Shown: piece by piece, positions 1,537 to 43,426 of the stretch
Numbering within the stretch: position 1 is the stretch's first letter
How the letters are laid out: each line of letters starts with the position of its first letter
Notes under the pieces: model-generated
Seen by the model: only the letters and a program-made list of their open reading frames with translations
Told to the model about the DNA's origin: nothing
Databases searched by the model: none
Source of the DNA: Octopus vulgaris
Taxonomy: Eukaryota
Assembly (NCBI GenBank): GCA_951406725.2
Contig: OX597814.1
Coordinates: forward strand, 217,496,001-217,560,000
Length of the DNA: 64,000 nt
Direction: 5' to 3'
Made by a program: the position numbers and the translations under genes

Positions 1537-2434
1537 CCTATGTAAAATGTCAGAACACAGCATCAGCAGTGACTACAAATAATGTCAGTACTATTATGTC
1601 TACTTCATTCTCCCCCATAACCAATGGACAAACAACAAATACAATGGCTTCAACAAATTCAACTACATCACCTTCCTCTGTTCTTGGCTCAACACCAGGA
1701 ACTACTACTACTACTTCTTCTTCTACTTCTATTTCTTCTTCTCCTTCTTCTTCTTCTTCTTCTCCTTCTTCTTCTCCTAATTCTTCTTCTTCTGTCTTCT
1801 TCTTCTATTTCTTCTTCTTCTTCTTCTTCTTCATCTTCTTCTTCTCCTTCTTCTCTCTCTTCCACTCCTTCTCTCTCTCCCACTCCTTCTCTCTCTTCCT
1901 CTTCTTCTCCTACTCTTCCTCCCTCTTCTTCTCCTTCTTCATCTTTTTCTCCTATCACCTCTTCTTCTATTTCTCTTTCTCCTTCCACCCCTTCCACCCT
2001 TTCTGGCTCTCTTCCTTCTTCCACTTCTCTAACTTCCTCTCTCTCTCCTTCTTCTGCTTCAACGTTGTCCCCTACAATACAACCTTCTACATCATCCAAT
2101 GGACTTGGGACAACTACTTCGAGTTCATCATCTCCAAATACAACAAGTATAACTGCCACCCCTACCATTCAGAACACATCTCAGGGAACCACAAATGTAA
2201 CTCAGAGTTTTATTTCGACTCCAATCATTACCTCGACTCTTATCTCAGCAAACGAAAGTACCATCGAAACCATCACAACATCAACTGTTGGTGTATCGCA
2301 AAGTGTTAATTCCAATACAACGACAAACGTAACGGAACCACCAGCGATAACAAAGGAGAATACAGTACCAGTTATTACTACAAAGGGACCAGCGGTTACC
2401 ACAGGTGCACCTGTAACAATGCAGCCAGTTATAT
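1537..2434 (+). CDS. Transmembrane mucin (MUC3/12/17-like): first coding exon found in the window, with the signal-peptide end and the Ser/Thr/Pro mucin domain; apparent 1-nt frameshift at ~1794
   Basis: Pyrimidine tract plus CAG acceptor at 1534-1536; GTAAGT donor at 2435. Reads (x)YVKCQNTASAVTTNN... then S/T-rich to ...TMQPVI. Length is 898 nt, or 897 nt (phase 1/1) if G1794 is removed. Confidence 0.85.
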
Positions 2435-5002
2435 GTAAGTAATTAAAACACACTTCATTACATGTGCGTGTGTGTGTGTGTGTGTGTGTGTTAATAGTTT
2501 AGTCAGTGACGGAAGGACAGCACCCATAACACTTTTCAGGGCCTCTAAGACCAGTTAGAAGAAGGCAATTATCTTCAAGCTGAAGATGTCCCGAATACCC
2601 GTAATAAACTGGTGTCTGCTGAAGGCACACAATGTATGTATATATATATATATAATATATATAAATATATATGCATATATACATACATATATGTACATAC
2701 CCACATATATATGTGTATATATACGTACATGTATAGGTACAGGACGTCAAAAAAACGTGAACAAAATGAAAAACGAGAACATAAAAAAACAAAGAAATGT
2801 AAACGAAATTTTTTTCGGACAGGAAAAGAAACAAATAGCTATAATATATATATATATATATATATATATATATATATATATATATATATATATATATATA
2901 TATATATATTTATTTATTTTATAGAAGGAGCTTCTACAGGACTAGAAATGTTTCATTCAGATGAAACAGTTCTAGTCCTGTAGAAGCTCCTTCTATAAAA
3001 TAAATTACTTTACTCTGCTATGTATTGAGTACCTTATTTACTGTGGTTAACCCCGACTCAACCCGGGACCTACACACACACACACACACACAATATATAT
3101 ATATATATATATATAAATAGCTATAATATATATATATAATATATATAGCTATATATATATATATATATATATATATATATATATGTGGATATCAGAATCG
3201 TGTTCCGTCTCTTTTTCATAATGGCTCTAAACTTTAAGTGTAGCTCACGGTGCAGAATATCAAGATGAATGATGCCTAGTCATACATATCACCATGACTT
3301 TTGCATAGCTCTCTCTCTCTCTCTCTCTCTCTCTCTCTCTATATATATATATATATATATATATATATATATATATATATATATATATATATATATATAT
3401 ATATATATATATAATATATATATATATATATATATATATATATATATATATACAGAGAGAGAGAGAGAGAGAGAGAGAGAGCAACTAGTGCAAAAGTCAT
3501 GGTGACTGGTTTTGGTGTATGACTAGGGCATCATTCATCTTGATTTTCTGGAATGTATCTGCACCGTGAGCGGTACATTTGTGACACTTAAAAAGTTTAG
3601 AGGAGCCATTATGAAAAAGAGACGGAACACGATTCTGAATACGATCCACATTTACCATTACGATACATGACCTCCTCGCATATCTTGGCGACGAATCGGG
3701 CAATCGATCCATTGAAGGACAGTCTTCATGGGCAATGATTTGATGAGACAGGCGAAGTGAAAATAGCTGTAAAGAAATGGGTACAACAGTGCACACCTAA
3801 TCTTTTCCAAAGAATATCCAAGAGTTGGTTGAATGATGGTTCACATGCAATGCATTGCTTGTGGCTTGTGCTATACAAAGCTACTATTCAACATAGTTAA
3901 ATAGTAGCTTTGTATAGAGGAAAAGTTACTCTATCAACATGCGCATTTTGAACCACCTGTGCCCACTTTTTTCGGGACAACCCTCACACTTCATATTTCA
4001 AGAACCAGTGTATACAAAGTAACTAGCACGAGTTGCCTAAGCGAAATAAATACAAGGGTCACACACTTTATTATCTTACCTAAGGCTTGATATTTACTCG
4101 CTATCCGACGTGTTTGAAACATTTAGACAGTCAACCTTGGAAGACGACAGCTTCTGCGTGGTAAATTATGTAACAAATTTGATTGAGTGGACCCGTCCTG
4201 AATCTGTTGCAAATCAAACCTAAAGACACAAAGCTTAAATATATCATTACCCGAATTCACTATTATATAGGTTAGTTAGTTCATCAGTTAAGATATGCAT
4301 TTTAAATATTCTCTCCTGACACATAACTCAATTGTAAATTTGTTTTTGTAGTCTAATGTTGAAAATGTAACTGTATTATTTTAAACTTATTTGCACAATA
4401 GTTTTGTTTAATGGAATAAAGCTAAAGTAGAACCTGTACAGTTTCATGCATGTTAAAAATGTCTGTTTAATTTAATGTAGATGATAGTTAACACTGTGGC
4501 GTTTATAATATACTAGTAATCATCTGGACTATATTTATGAGAATAAGTTTAAATATTGTAAGATGAGTTTAATGTATCAAAATAGAGAAACAATATGGCA
4601 AGGCTGCGAATATATATATATATATATATATATATATATATATATATATATATATATATATAAATATTAGAAAATGGAGAAACATACTTAAATCAATCAA
4701 ACATCAACCAACAGATGATACCCAATCAATACTTTATTACACCATTATATAACAGTAAAGGCATTATACAAAATATATTGTAAATATAATTAGACAAGGA
4801 AATAGAAATATAAAATATAAAATATAATATGTAATTATAACATATCTGACAGCTGTTTCGGTAGTAAGGGCAAGCATGCCTCATTTAACTTATAAGCCAT
4901 ATAAGATATATTTTCTTGTCTTGTCTATCTAGTATATGTGTGTTGTTGAGTGTGATTGGTGGTTGTATCTAATGTTGTCTAATGTTGGTGCTGAGAAGAA
5001 GG

Positions 5003-5320
5003 TGAAGGCGCGTGGCTCAGTGGTTAGGGCATTCGGCTCACGACCGTAAGGTCGTAAGTTCAATTCTCGGCGACGCGTTGTGTCCTTGAGCAAGACACTT
5101 TATTTCCCGTTGCTCCAGTCCACTCAGCTGGCAACAATGAGTAGTGCCTGTGTTTCAAAGGGCCAGCCTTGTCACACACTGTGTCATGCTGAATCTCCCT
5201 GAGAATTACGTTAAGGGCACACGTGTCTGCGGATTGCTCAGCCACTTGCACGTTAATTTCACGAGCATGCTGTTCCGTTGATCGTATCAGCTGGGACCCA
5301 GGTCGTTGTAACCGACGGAG
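5003..5320 (+). mobile_element. tRNA-derived SINE with 15-bp TSD
   Basis: A box tggctcagtggttagg and B box gttcaattc. TSD gtgctgagaagaagg at 4988-5002 and 5320-5334. Confidence 0.85.
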
Positions 5321-6059
5321 TGCTGAGAAGAAGGAAAATGGATTTGGTAGGTGTGGTGACAAGTTTCTAAATGACTGATTTACAGTTAGAACGACTGTGA
5401 TAATAGTAGAGGAGGAGAAATAATGAGAATGGGGTAGACAGAGACAGACAATTAGACAGCCACTTCTAGCTCTATCTAATACGTGTGATGGTTCATTGCA
5501 GTTATATGGCTTGTTGTGTATTTTCTATGCTTCAGTGCGTATGTGTGTGTTTTATCTGTTCTGTTGTTTTTCATACGTAGCCTTACTTCAAGTTTATTGG
5601 AAAAGACCTTTGATTAAAAGAATTGATATAGGGTTAGAGCAGTTGGTACATGTGGGTATGATGTCTCTGCTGAGTAGGTTTTGAAGAGGTTCACGAAGGT
5701 CATGTAGATGCAGGTTGTAAAGAGTGAATAAAAAAGCGGATTTTTGTAATCTGATAAATATCGTAAGCTCTTTTATGTACATTGTATGAGCTTGGCGACC
5801 TCCGCGATAATTTTCTACCTTTATATTTTTATCCTACATCAAACTTTTCTCGTGTTTTCCTTTCTTTTTTCATGTTGGATAATTCTAAAGCTAGGCAAGT
5901 TAGCTGTTACATATAGTAGTTGCTAAGTGGGGCCTCGTTTTATTCCTTCCAGGACTTACATAAATGGCAATTTCACTTCAGAATGTTTGTGCAAAGCTTG
6001 AAAAAGTTGATGTGTAAAACGAAAAGCATGTTTTCAAATGTATTGTTGTTCCTTTTCAG

Positions 6060-42103: not shown

Positions 42104-42482
42104 TTATTACCTCCGCCAAGGAAGGAGGTTATGTTTTAATCAGCGTCGGTTTGTCAGTCTGTGTGCAAAATAACTCAAAAAGTTGTGAACGGTATTTGAT
42201 AAAACTTGCAGGAAAAGTTGGTAATGACACAAGGAACAGATGATGGAATTTTGGTAGTGATCCGGGAATTTTTATGGATTCTTGAAGGATTTTTCATTTG
42301 TTACATTTACTTTACATGAAGTATTACAATGTTATGTTCTTTGATTATCTCCCTTAAAAACACGTTCATCGCTTCCACATAACCTATGGTGGCGTTGATG
42401 TTTCCAAAGTTTATTTTCATTTCTCTATTAATAATTTTACTCGAATATCTATCTTAAAATGAGCTGCTTGGCGGAGGTCTGC
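42104..42482 (+). mobile_element. Helentron/HINE-like non-autonomous element inserted in a CR1-like remnant
   Basis: Subterminal inverted repeats acctccgccaag (42109) and cttggcggaggt (~42467), with a short gtctgt-like microsatellite near the 5' end. Confidence 0.65.
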
Positions 42483-43390
42483 AGAGGATGACATGACAAG
42501 CCTTGACTATTGGGATCGGCTCAAAAACCTCAGGCTTTGCTCCTTCCACTGCCGCTGTGAGCTCTATATCATCTGTATGATGTGGAAAATATTCCATCAA
42601 CATTGCCCATCTTAAAAATTCATCTGAGGCTTGGCCCCCGTGCCATCCGTCCACTACAGAAATGGTCGTGTCGTATCACAACACTATGACAGAACTATTT
42701 CACCTCAATTGGCCCTGCTCTCTGCAACATCGTGCAAGACAAACATAAGGGAGGAAAGTGACTTCATGGCATTCAAACGATCCCTAGATGATTACCCCCA
42801 ACAAATACCAGATAAAGCACCCACACCCAGATATGTCTCTGAACATTTATTGACCCCAAAAGGATGAAAAGCAAAGTTGACCTCTGTGGAATATGAACTC
42901 AGAACATAACCACAGGCAAAATACCACAAGGAATATCGTCCAGTATGCTGATGATTCTGCCAGCTCACTGCCTGAATAATAATAATAATAATAATAATAA
43001 TAATAATAATAATAATAATAATAATAATAATAATAATCATCGTTTAGCGTCCGCTTTCCATGCTAGCATGGGTTGGACGGTTCAACTGGGGTCTGGGAAG
43101 CCAGAAGGCTGCACCAGGCCCAGTTTGATCTGGCAGTGTTTCTACAGCTGGATGCCCTTCCTAACGCCAACTACTCCATGAGTGTAGTGGGTGCTTTTTA
43201 CGTGCCACCTGCACAGGAGCGAGACAAGGCTGGCAAATGGCCACGATCGGATGGTGCTTTTTACGTGCCGCCGGCACAATAATAATGATAATGATAATGA
43301 TGATGATGATAATAATAATAATAATAATAACAATGATAATATTTAAAGCAAGATATATTGATTGGACTTTTTTCGTTTTTAATTTTTCAG

Positions 43391-43426
43391 TATGATGTAA
43401 TGGACCCTAATAGAAGACCTTACTAA
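43391..43426 (+). CDS. Mucin terminal coding exon (YDVMDPNRRPY*)
   Basis: tttttcag acceptor, phase 0, TAA stop. Followed by unique UTR-like sequence. Confidence 0.7.
   Translation, partial: YDVMDPNRRPY

Follow-up and report, generated by a model that had tools for sequence, protein, structure and literature searches.

An octopus single-pass membrane mucin gene, spliced into RNA and likely sharing a bilaterian ancestor with MUC3/12/17

The membrane mucins MUC3A, MUC3B, MUC12 and MUC17 (MUC3/12/17) are O-glycosylated, apical in intestinal epithelium, and encoded in a tandem cluster between ACHE and TRIM56/SERPINE1; EGF-like domains stand on both sides of the SEA domain, and the stalk of proline, threonine and serine (PTS) runs to thousands of residues. 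They were compared here via pig XP_020941912.1, mole-rat EHB00914.1, turtle mucin-3A, Xenopus mucin-17-like, and passages of PMC13643018 and PMC9578598. The SEA cleavage motif is given as GS[V/I]VV, cut between G and S, in a passage of PMC13643018, and as GSxxV (x = V/I) in one of PMC9478142. IMPG2 (Scleropages KPP79532.1; PMC9478142, in part) shares with the gene described below a SEA-EGF-EGF-like-TM module with a GS site; MUC13 and HEG1 (PMC1552070, in part) share PTS, EGF, and TM, with SEA in MUC13. Sea-anemone 'mucin1-like' SP-PTS-SEA-TM proteins, named by architecture and BLAST, have already put an invertebrate PTS-SEA-TM architecture in print; the relevant passages of PMC9080433 give no EGF units or link to MUC3/12/17.

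The window, 64,000 nucleotides of Octopus vulgaris contig OX597814.1, is best explained as holding a spliced single-pass membrane mucin gene that likely shares a common bilaterian ancestor with MUC3/12/17 and likely forms a sugar-coated cell-surface brush (probability about 0.6). Its features are as follows.

L002:7643-7711, 2.3 kb upstream of the window: signal-peptide exon, 69 nt
1537..2434, forward strand: exon 1; end of signal peptide and PTS (mucin) domain of ~298 aa; both ends spliced
1790..1797 (~1794), forward strand: one-base frame break in a serine (TCT) tract, where S/T/P content changes frame
6060..6169, forward strand: exon 2 (SEA exon 1); phase 1/0; joined to 2434 in 4/4 runs
11241..11299, forward strand: exon 3 (SEA exon 2), 59 nt; phase 0/2; stops just 5' of the cleavage loop
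12972..13141, forward strand: exon 4 (SEA exon 3); phase 2/1; putative Gly-Ser cleavage site GSTLV at 12976-12990, and linker helix
16932..17088, forward strand: exon 5; phase 1/2; four-cysteine unit and first part of EGF-like domain
21299..21460, forward strand: exon 6; phase 2/2; end of EGF-like domain (YYYSGSKC), TM at ~21375-21443, CC-KRKK stop-transfer
31066..31156, forward strand: exon 7 (cytoplasmic tail exon 1); phase 2/0
32700..32825, forward strand: exon 8 (tail exon 2); phase 0/0; weak acceptor, boundary the same as in P0001
41165..41227, forward strand: exon 9 (tail exon 3); phase 0/0; 41165-41188 encode the motif remainder YSIVRPKI
43391..43426, forward strand: exon 10, last coding exon; phase 0/stop; protein ends -RRPY
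43713..43718, forward strand: AATAAA, candidate polyadenylation signal, ~290 nt 3' of the stop

The gene is real, is spliced into RNA, and is truncated in public annotations. The sequence-only reading had given ten phase-matched GT-AG exons and ~620 aa: all ten window exons are indeed AG/GT-bounded, and exons 2-10 keep their phases and translate stop-free; exon 1 is 898 nt long, a length that three does not divide, and so cannot have phase 1/1 as assembled. With the signal-peptide exon, itself preceded by at least one more, the exon total comes to at least 12 and the predicted protein to ~650 aa (signal-PTS-SEA-4Cys-EGF-TM-tail). The junction-spanning RNA proposed as a check was found for three junctions, RNA-like contigs connecting the upstream signal exon to 1537, 2434 to 6060, and 11299 to 12972, each in 4/4 runs. 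In a 1,808-nt contig the length remaining for exons 2-3 is exactly 167 nt, the predicted amount; for exons 5-10, two contig remainders, 971 and 955 nt long, agree with 635 nt of coding sequence plus 3' UTR, and would put the 3' end ~320-336 nt past the stop, where an ACAT repeat coincides. The gene had also been called hidden; the O. vulgaris protein P0001, which matches spliced exons 2-10 in sequence, is already public, and is short of ~197 mucin-domain residues. P0001 may derive from the same assembly, and is therefore independent only as a gene prediction. Among nine scored candidates in the genome, exon 21299..21460 is single copy.

The proposed order of S/T domain, SEA, Cys-rich EGF, TM, and tail is borne out, and with P0001 supports the claim of a cephalopod PTS-SEA-EGF-TM mucin. 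The PTS domain, encoded by one exon, has 55% S+T and 65% P+S+T; no regular tandem repeat (VNTR) occurs in it, Tandem Repeats Finder reporting only degenerate TCT-type arrays at 1701-2004. The SEA domain scores 30.6 bits in Pfam (cut-off 26.4), the EGF 19 bits, below its cut-off of 21.5. A SEA fold is present in the predicted model, with pLDDT 81-96 in nine of the first ten ten-residue blocks; TMPRSS and MUC16 SEA are the best folds found by Foldseek. The transmembrane helix (hydropathy peak 3.1, residues 325-343) is seen in the model also, and is followed by a tail of 108 residues. In GSTLV, Gly-Ser and the final Val are retained and the middle residues depart from the GS[VI]VV consensus of MUC3/12/17. 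By analogy with the family, dense O-glycosylation of the stalk would be expected, making it a short brush that projects ~300 residues from the membrane; self-cleavage of the SEA domain between Gly and Ser in the ER would leave the stalk held non-covalently and detachable under shear. The departure of GSTLV from GS[VI]VV makes self-cleavage the less certain of these expectations.

Common to the octopus protein and MUC3/12/17 are the single-exon PTS, SEA with a Gly-Ser site, TM, tail motif, at least 12 exons, apparently three intron positions, and a membrane-proximal EGF-like unit spaced C-x3-C and C-x-C-x12-C. Ten cysteines lie between SEA and TM in octopus and in MUC3-type rows; IMPG2, tunicates, and jellyfish have 12. 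The unit after SEA has four cysteines in octopus and two in MUC3/12/17; the octopus stalk is ~300 aa without tandem repeats, far shorter than the mammalian one; and octopus has only the EGF-like unit C-terminal to SEA. No cysteine occurs within 60 residues before octopus SEA, whereas type A rows with >50 residues there have 3-7 in 9-10 of 10 (P0085, P0114, P0132, P0019, P0077, P0216, P0148, P0131, P0093, P0043). A pre-SEA EGF is likewise absent from the 18 lophotrochozoan rows (of 20) having pre-SEA sequence, one abalone model showing two cysteines there. The octopus tail extends 25 residues beyond the motif and ends RRPY, without the class I PDZ ligand of MUC3/12/17; since that pattern is found in only 4/12 type A rows, it is a patchy trait outside mammals. 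The octopus gene is single, with no paralogue within 60 kb of the window in either direction; among 34 listed carboxylesterase matches none lies on the window's contig (a lower bound), so that ACHE linkage was not seen.

The tail motif, F.P.L..[IV]D....[YFI].I.RP, spans ~20 residues with fixed spacing and occurs in octopus as in mammalian, turtle, frog, and sawfish MUC3-type mucins; its first 13 residues (FRPNLSHIDTAKD) are encoded by 32787-32825. A vertebrate-only profile, made from four rows whose phmmer match excluded the tail, scores 28.0 in octopus, 29.5 in abalone, and 30.0 in annelid, each with 0/1000 shuffles as high. The same profile gives no significant match in IMPG2 (0/3), tunicate (0/2), or jellyfish (0/1), the groups taken into this comparison, which leaves out MUC13, HEG1, and MUC1. 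The reciprocal lophotrochozoan profile finds 5/5 vertebrate type A/B tails tested (0/500 shuffles as high). Only 7/17 mollusc and 1/7 lancelet rows pass the motif test, and motif carriers are over-sampled in these counts because relatives were gathered with an octopus query including the tail; lancelet rows failing the full motif carry short RP-containing tails such as F.IPR. In the ESM Atlas the tail alone finds no family (best 0.83). The motif is predicted to dock an adaptor, either of trafficking or of the cell cortex, and to predate the PDZ ligand at the end of mammalian MUC17.

A phase-0 intron, genomic in octopus, lies four residues past the D/N of the motif, and the motif in vertebrate MUC3/12/17 is likely split by the same one. 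Vertebrate evidence for it comes from one mis-annotated protein, mole-rat P0043, which breaks at this position twice, at a fusion point and at a read-through insert starting with V and ending with Q; two Owenia isoforms part two residues past the position, as alternative last exons would. At the phase-0 boundary in SEA, P0043 fuses onto MDEVY, corresponding to octopus LTKVY. At the EGF boundary pig transcripts begin or end between TCR and CFST, corresponding to ICK and CSEN in octopus; one lancelet and one clam show this boundary too. All three matches are indirect, drawn from isoforms and fusions. Introns in SEA may be a general feature of SEA domains; with the EGF boundary found more widely, only the tail intron is therefore diagnostic.

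By phmmer, 246 matches at E<=0.001 were obtained, many spanning SEA to TM, and the octopus gene, far from being peculiar to octopus, is one of many in a large mollusc family. Invertebrate relatives, from bivalves, gastropods, an annelid, and lancelets, occur in Solemya, Haliotis, Patella, Dreissena, Mya, Babylonia, Mytilus, Owenia, and Branchiostoma; vertebrate relatives include pig mucin-3B-like, mole-rat Mucin-3A, turtle mucin-3A, Xenopus mucin-17-like, and sawfish mucin-17. MUC13 and HEG1 are not among the named sequence matches and were compared by architecture: MUC13 is EGF-SEA-EGF-EGF and HEG1 has multiple EGF without a clear SEA, whereas octopus has no pre-SEA EGF. Its ten cysteines and the F.P.L..[IV]D....x.I.RP motif place the octopus protein in a wider MUC3-like SEA-Cys-EGF-TM family, as delimited in this analysis.

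Two other vertebrate clades stand no further from octopus than MUC3/12/17 does. The shark/frog clade labelled 'mucin-17' (sawfish XP_051895312.1, toad XP_044138121.1), a starred clade in the tree and separate from mammalian MUC3 types, has the full tail motif, a PTS stalk, and a four-cysteine unit plus EGF after SEA, as in octopus; unlike octopus it also has cysteine-rich EGF units on the N-terminal side of SEA, with 6-8 cysteines there in 5/6 rows. The shark/bird clade, 'IMPG2-like' or uncharacterised (Chiloscyllium XP_072415223.1, duck UniRef A0A8B9U9X9), shares with octopus PTS-SEA-4Cys-EGF-TM without pre-SEA EGF and has the closest cysteine spacing; its tail motif is worn (4/5 rows in register, 6-13/500 shuffles as high) and its own conserved C-terminus is unlike that of octopus.

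The relation that best explains the octopus protein is co-orthology, at the level of the family, to MUC3/12/17 and to these two sister clades; the pre-SEA EGF and the giant repeat stalk would be vertebrate additions or mollusc losses. That it is instead a strict orthologue of the MUC3A/3B/12/17 cluster, the other vertebrate clades having split off before molluscs and vertebrates parted, is improbable: lophotrochozoans do stand beside the MUC3-type clade in both trees (FastTree 0.919; IQ-TREE ectodomain+TM 71/82), and the top three ESM Atlas clusters are Mucin-12, mucin-12, and Mucin-3B (0.93-0.94; IMPG2 0.89, HEG1 0.84-0.85), but tree support is weak, and AU tests reject none of the placements (lophotrochozoan+IMPG2, p 0.535; with MUC3 types A and B, 0.522; one all-vertebrate clade, 0.552). 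Of four vertebrate profiles, moreover, that of the shark/frog clade scores octopus highest (79.7 bits, against 68.3 for MUC3-type), and the shark/bird clade has the closest cysteine spacing and likewise no pre-SEA EGF. Strict membership, as first proposed, is not supported: EGF before SEA, PDZ ligand, and ACHE linkage were not seen, the cleavage site departs in part from GS[VI]VV, and the phylogeny that had been suggested leaves the IMPG2 grouping standing beside the MUC3-type one. This surviving grouping, the lack of pre-SEA EGF in lophotrochozoan rows, and the occurrence of the SEA-Cys-EGF-TM cassette in jellyfish P0074 and tunicates, which places it before bilaterians, would suit an independent build from that old cassette, also the source of IMPG2 and the cnidarian and tunicate proteins; the stalk would then have been gained separately in molluscs, PTS domains being known to arise convergently (Pajic et al. 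2022, as cited in a passage of PMC9578598), and the tail motif would be a short convergent docking signal, in keeping with the F.IPR-type lancelet tails. The protein would then act as a membrane mucin with no special kinship to MUC3/12/17. We regard such a history as unlikely, though less so than strict orthology: a fixed-spacing motif of ~20 residues recurs in the same place behind the same ectodomain, apparently with the same intron, and the cysteine count is that of MUC3-type rows.

The frame break bears on whether this copy is functional. The 5' frame of exon 1 terminates at 2307-2309, and P0001 restores the frame via a 589-nt intron, GT..AG at 1584-2172; alleles vary in the serine tract, with a displaced 26-nt piece in run X13. 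A real null allele, its extra base genomic and its product a short secreted serine-rich peptide, a decayed message, or a short-stalk form made via the 589-nt intron, would account for these observations and for the presence of the break in the assembly. It is very improbable, since no joint at 1584-2172 occurs in 4/4 runs, where contigs continue unspliced across the two proposed sites; each frame remains S/T-rich until it meets the break at ~1794; the site is a low-complexity pyrimidine tract; and the exons that follow remain intact here, with conserved counterparts in two further Octopus species. Contigs of 4/4 runs cover 1537-1689 and 1954-2434, the comparison omitting 1690-1953 (masked as repeat). 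The break is probably an assembly or sequencing error in the TCT tract.

For the family-level co-orthologue, the shared motif and the indirect intron evidence argue for a common ancestor no younger than the parting of protostomes and deuterostomes; with motif and likely intron in common, the family likely predates the parting of molluscs and vertebrates. The early-bilaterian origin first suggested is to this extent upheld, by a motif absent from IMPG2 and three indirectly matched introns, while the trees reject no rival placement. Somewhat better than even, in our estimate, are the odds that MUC3/12/17 is the vertebrate branch of a bilaterian-old PTS-SEA-EGF mucin family, expanded in molluscs and present in annelids and lancelets, in which an undescribed 20-residue docking motif and its intron were kept for >550 million years. 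If so, the origin of a supposedly vertebrate family would move back to early bilaterians, the SEA-mucin coat on invertebrate epithelia would be anchored in the same way, and the motif would bind the ancestral apical-targeting machinery of these mucins. A conserved cytoplasmic motif would also be implied in human MUC3/12/17, with a partner accessible to pull-down, and the mollusc, annelid, and lancelet members would offer invertebrate models of glycocalyx function. Novelty is tempered by the printed anemone proteins, the breadth of the family, and existing labels.

Lancelet proteins already bear the automatic database names 'mucin-17-like' and 'Mucin-12'. The IMPG2 label assigned automatically to mollusc proteins, among them the orthologues in O. 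sinensis and Patella, looks wrong, as SEA count, cysteine count, and motif differ: IMPG2 has two SEA domains, 12 cysteines, and the tail motif in 0/3 rows; octopus has one SEA and 10 cysteines.

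The ten exons of the octopus mucin gene were placed via their splice sites and then translated; the window was placed at G000:C1:217,496,001-217,560,000, and a signal-peptide exon was located on L002, a locus outside it.

Exons of the octopus mucin gene (exons 1-10 from splice sites and translation)
1537-2434, + strand, exon 1
6060-6169, + strand, exon 2
11241-11299, + strand, exon 3
12972-13141, + strand, exon 4
16932-17088, + strand, exon 5
21299-21460, + strand, exon 6
31066-31156, + strand, exon 7
32700-32825, + strand, exon 8
41165-41227, + strand, exon 9
43391-43426, + strand, exon 10
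L002:7643-7711, signal-peptide exon, 69 nt, 2.3 kb upstream of the window

AG precedes every one of the ten exons and GT follows each except the last; the ten GT-AG exons of the sequence-only reading were all recovered. Exons 2-10 are open for 324 residues up to the stop, in the phases proposed; exon 1, said to run from phase 1 to phase 1, cannot do so as assembled because it is 898 nt long. The gene is real; that reading was mostly right, and is corrected in the phase of exon 1 and the missing upstream exon(s): at least one further exon lies 5' of the signal-peptide exon, and the complete product is about 650 aa, encoded by at least 12 exons.

Contigs were aligned from six different sequencing runs, four per junction set; the run kinds are guesses, none is on record as RNA, and the evidence used is that of contigs skipping GT..AG introns. 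Part of the first exon is present in 20/24 listed runs. Contigs of X1, X5, X9, and X15 omit 11300-12971, with GT..AG ends; contigs of X1, X5, X13, and X12 start at 1537, where 29/30 letters of a loose end agree with the upstream exon, and halt at 2434, with a loose end identical to the start of exon 2. A translation start at the in-window ATG at 1434 (MGNRNK...) was ruled out, as contigs start at 1537, joined to the upstream exon. Between exon 1 and exon 4 a 1,808-nt contig carries exactly 167 letters, the expected sum; past exon 4 it has 971, compared with 635 coding. Three junctions (upstream exon/1537, 2434/6060, 11299/12972) are joined directly by contigs; those of exons 5-10 are supported, though not by direct joints, by the length of the contig remainder together with P0001, the public protein of the gene.

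The stalk comprises 298 aa, 55% of them Ser or Thr. The Ser/Thr codons change frame near base 1794 of the first exon, and the 5' frame reaches a stop at 2307-2309. P0001 skirts this break by a 589-nt GT-AG intron (1584-2172), at the cost of about 197 stalk residues; contigs of X1, X5, X13, and X12 have no joint at 1584-2172, with 1690-1953, the stretch in which the frame break lies, passed over as repeat in the alignment. Lower word shares (0.68) in some runs were considered as a sign of a spliced-out serine tract; this was rejected, since those runs span the whole tract and differ by SNPs. Three public proteins matched exon 4 as query: P0001 (453 aa, annotated in Octopus vulgaris as a "hypothetical protein" and identical over exons 2-10), an O. 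sinensis protein labelled IMPG2 (P0002, 88%), and an O. bimaculoides fragment (P0003, 76%). As P0002 and P0003 begin past the serine tract, the stalk is absent from the three public models. P0002 also reads the tail in another frame, and P0003 runs through the exon-4 donor.

Contigs and assembly differ at 12 coding-exon bases (13039-13097, 1614-2313), of which 10 alter the amino acid, including 5/5 within 60 bases in the C-terminal half of SEA. X5 and X15 show two alleles; one run carries another organism code. The amino-acid-changing differences may be a sign of diversifying selection acting on the exposed surface.

In a Pfam scan of the spliced protein the predicted SEA domain passes (30.6 bits, cut-off 26.4), and the predicted EGF domain falls short (19 bits, cut-off 21.5). 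The SEA fold appears in an alignment-based model (mean pLDDT 74), along with a linker helix, a pair of small beta units, and a TM helix. The tail is modelled as disordered, though confidence rises (pLDDT 68) over residues 281-300, which are the tail motif; a single-sequence model was set aside as poor (pLDDT 48). The closest PDB structures to the model are SEA domains of TMPRSS and MUC16, and PDB sequence searches returned the SEA domains of ADGRF1 and TMPRSS11D and EGF-family ligands, nothing else. The octopus cleavage loop reads GFREG|STLV; the consensus given in a passage of PMC13643018 is G|S[V/I]VV. The P0001 ectodomain holds 11 N-glycosylation sequons.

A phmmer search with residues 130-453 gave 246 matches at E<=0.001; the listing covers the best 150, of which 30 were looked up (27 with names), and two more were named via a search with a 21-row alignment. 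Named relatives include bivalves, gastropods, the annelid Owenia, seven lancelet proteins, two tunicates, a jellyfish, and IMPG2, and, among vertebrates, pig mucin-3B-like, mole-rat Mucin-3A, turtle mucin-3A, frog mucin-17-like/3B-like, and sawfish mucin-17; unnamed shark and duck proteins are listed as well. Remaining rows were grouped by tree position alone, named rows being 7/17 mollusc, 6/12 type A (MUC3/12/17-type vertebrate clade), 2/6 type B (shark/frog clade labelled mucin-17), 2/5 type C (shark/bird clade labelled IMPG2-like), 1/3 IMPG2, and 7/8 lancelet. In most mollusc rows PTS sequence lies immediately N-terminal of SEA, and the octopus gene is one member of a broad lophotrochozoan family. 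Word-index protein searches returned Octopus only (3 matches/22 candidates; 1/1,789) or, with the 21-row alignment, 8/6,171, mostly frogs; human MUC3/12/17, MUC13, and HEG1 were returned by none of them. The human regions 7q22 (MUC3 cluster) and 3q21 (MUC13, HEG1) are paralogous. An Atlas search with TM and tail gave no match above 0.83.

The octopus protein is predicted to work like a MUC3/17-type membrane mucin and likely shares an ancestor with that type. The tree (57 rows, being 55 of the 150 listed matches, P0001, and one frog protein; 220 columns from SEA to TM; LG+G4) recovers type A, type B, type C, and IMPG2 with Styela each as a starred clade, joins lophotrochozoans and type A at only 71/82, and leaves deep branches unsettled. 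AU tests rejected none of the groupings lophotrochozoans with IMPG2 (0.535), lophotrochozoans with A and B (0.522), and all vertebrates together (0.552). With at most four rows compared per group, octopus cysteine spacing is nearest to type C; 10 cysteines is the usual number in octopus, molluscs, annelid, lancelets, and types A-C, and IMPG2, tunicates, and jellyfish have 12. Unnamed vertebrate proteins with PTS, SEA, a four-cysteine unit, EGF, and TM (P0063, P0127, P0068, P0086, P0109, P0122; shark, ducks) form a family whose tail is strongly conserved and whose cysteine spacing comes closest to that of the octopus protein; their labels are IMPG2-like, collagen-like, or uncharacterised.

In the tail, F.P.L..[IV]D....[YFI].I.RP.[VI] lies behind the membrane in both molluscs and vertebrates (21-row alignment). 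A profile of four vertebrate rows whose phmmer match left the tail unused was tested on 17 rows with 1000 shuffles each. None of 1000 shuffles reached the score of octopus (28.0), of an unnamed close relative (22.5), or of abalone (29.5), annelid (30.0), or sawfish (33.5). For three further molluscs and a lancelet 2-4/1000 did so, and for the rows of IMPG2 (three), type C (two), tunicates (two), and jellyfish (one) 100-876/1000. Group counts come from a five-row profile including one biased row (P0129, whose match took in the tail) and from a sample skewed to motif carriers because the query contained the tail: cephalopod-group 2/2, mollusc 7/17, annelid 1/1, lancelet 1/7, type A 7/7, type B 5/6, type C 0/5, IMPG2 0/3, and ungrouped 13/51 pass. 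In reverse, a profile of ten lophotrochozoan rows found 5/5 tested type A/B rows at 0/500 shuffles, and a worn motif in register in 4/5 type C rows (6-13/500).

The octopus gene has a phase-0 intron inside the tail motif, four residues past its D; vertebrate exon boundaries were deduced from isoforms and annotation slips. The naked mole-rat record "Mucin-3A" (P0043, EHB00914.1) fuses two tandem mucin genes and retains an intron: the first mucin stops four residues past D, where the second is attached at MDEVY, which corresponds to octopus LTKVY, and the second has an insert four residues past N that begins with Val and ends with Gln, fitting a retained GT..CAG intron. Two Owenia isoforms part just past this intron point. 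Pig transcripts begin or stop at TCR|CFST, matching octopus ICK|CSEN, a boundary also present in a clam and a lancelet. Introns inside SEA may be common to many SEA domains.

Membership of the MUC3/12/17 family, as first proposed, holds at family level and is too narrow as orthology; the octopus gene is not classed as a member of the MUC3/12/17 cluster. An EGF before SEA and a class I PDZ ligand are given as MUC17 features in a passage of PMC13643018, and the octopus protein differs from MUC17 in lacking both. Its stalk, unlike those of the cluster, is without tandem repeats, and none of the 34 carboxylesterase matches listed lies on the window's contig. No neighbouring paralogue occurs in 60 kb on either side of the window, and genome searches with the TM exon, the second tail exon, and a cephalopod-like relative gave this locus alone at meaningful E-values.

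The mucin would enter the secretory route by its signal peptide, with O-glycosylation of the stalk and N-glycosylation of the ectodomain; possible SEA self-cleavage at G|S would make the stalk releasable by shear, and docking of the tail motif may serve surface delivery or retention. The predicted role is most likely that of a short brush which would protect or lubricate an epithelial surface. The statement of a "vertebrate origin" probably comes from Lang et al. 2007 (PNAS) and Pei and Grishin 2017. Among non-subscription papers, full-text searches judged by title and abstract start listed none that deals with MUC3-family homologues of molluscs or lancelets or with the tail motif; anemone proteins with signal peptide, PTS, SEA, and TM are reported in PMC9080433.

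In a second octopus mucin gene (G000:C24:24146600 region; L009:1507-3138, L022:2081-4673), an open frame of 1,840 aa made of PTS repeats leads into SEA, a GSVVV exon, and a TM exon; no EGF exon was detected in between, which gives a MUC1-like layout. A further SEA-like exon lies on a different contig (L008:1480-1707, G000:C10). Within the window, introns hold reverse-transcriptase relics of LINE-type retrotransposons at 28120-29427 (+) and 34494-34925 (-) (Pfam RVT_1, E 1.7e-30 and 3.3e-12), and more LINE-like and transposase-like fragments, without a Pfam match where scanned, lie at 29428-30804, 53594-54016, and 63637-63999. Intronic 9794-9972, overlapping a LINE-like fragment, is covered by 370- and 820-nt contigs in two runs, which may derive from another copy. 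Right after the TM exon, about 340 bases are directly duplicated 2.6 kb apart (21580-21919 and 24185-24531; exact blocks of 30, 210, and 87 bases). At 61410-61841 (-) a convergent neighbour gene ends in a Pro/Gln-rich exon without Pfam match; about 50 kb beyond it, charged EPRD/REQRD repeats make up a 1,064-aa frame (L021:1227-4421, -) that may belong to the same gene.
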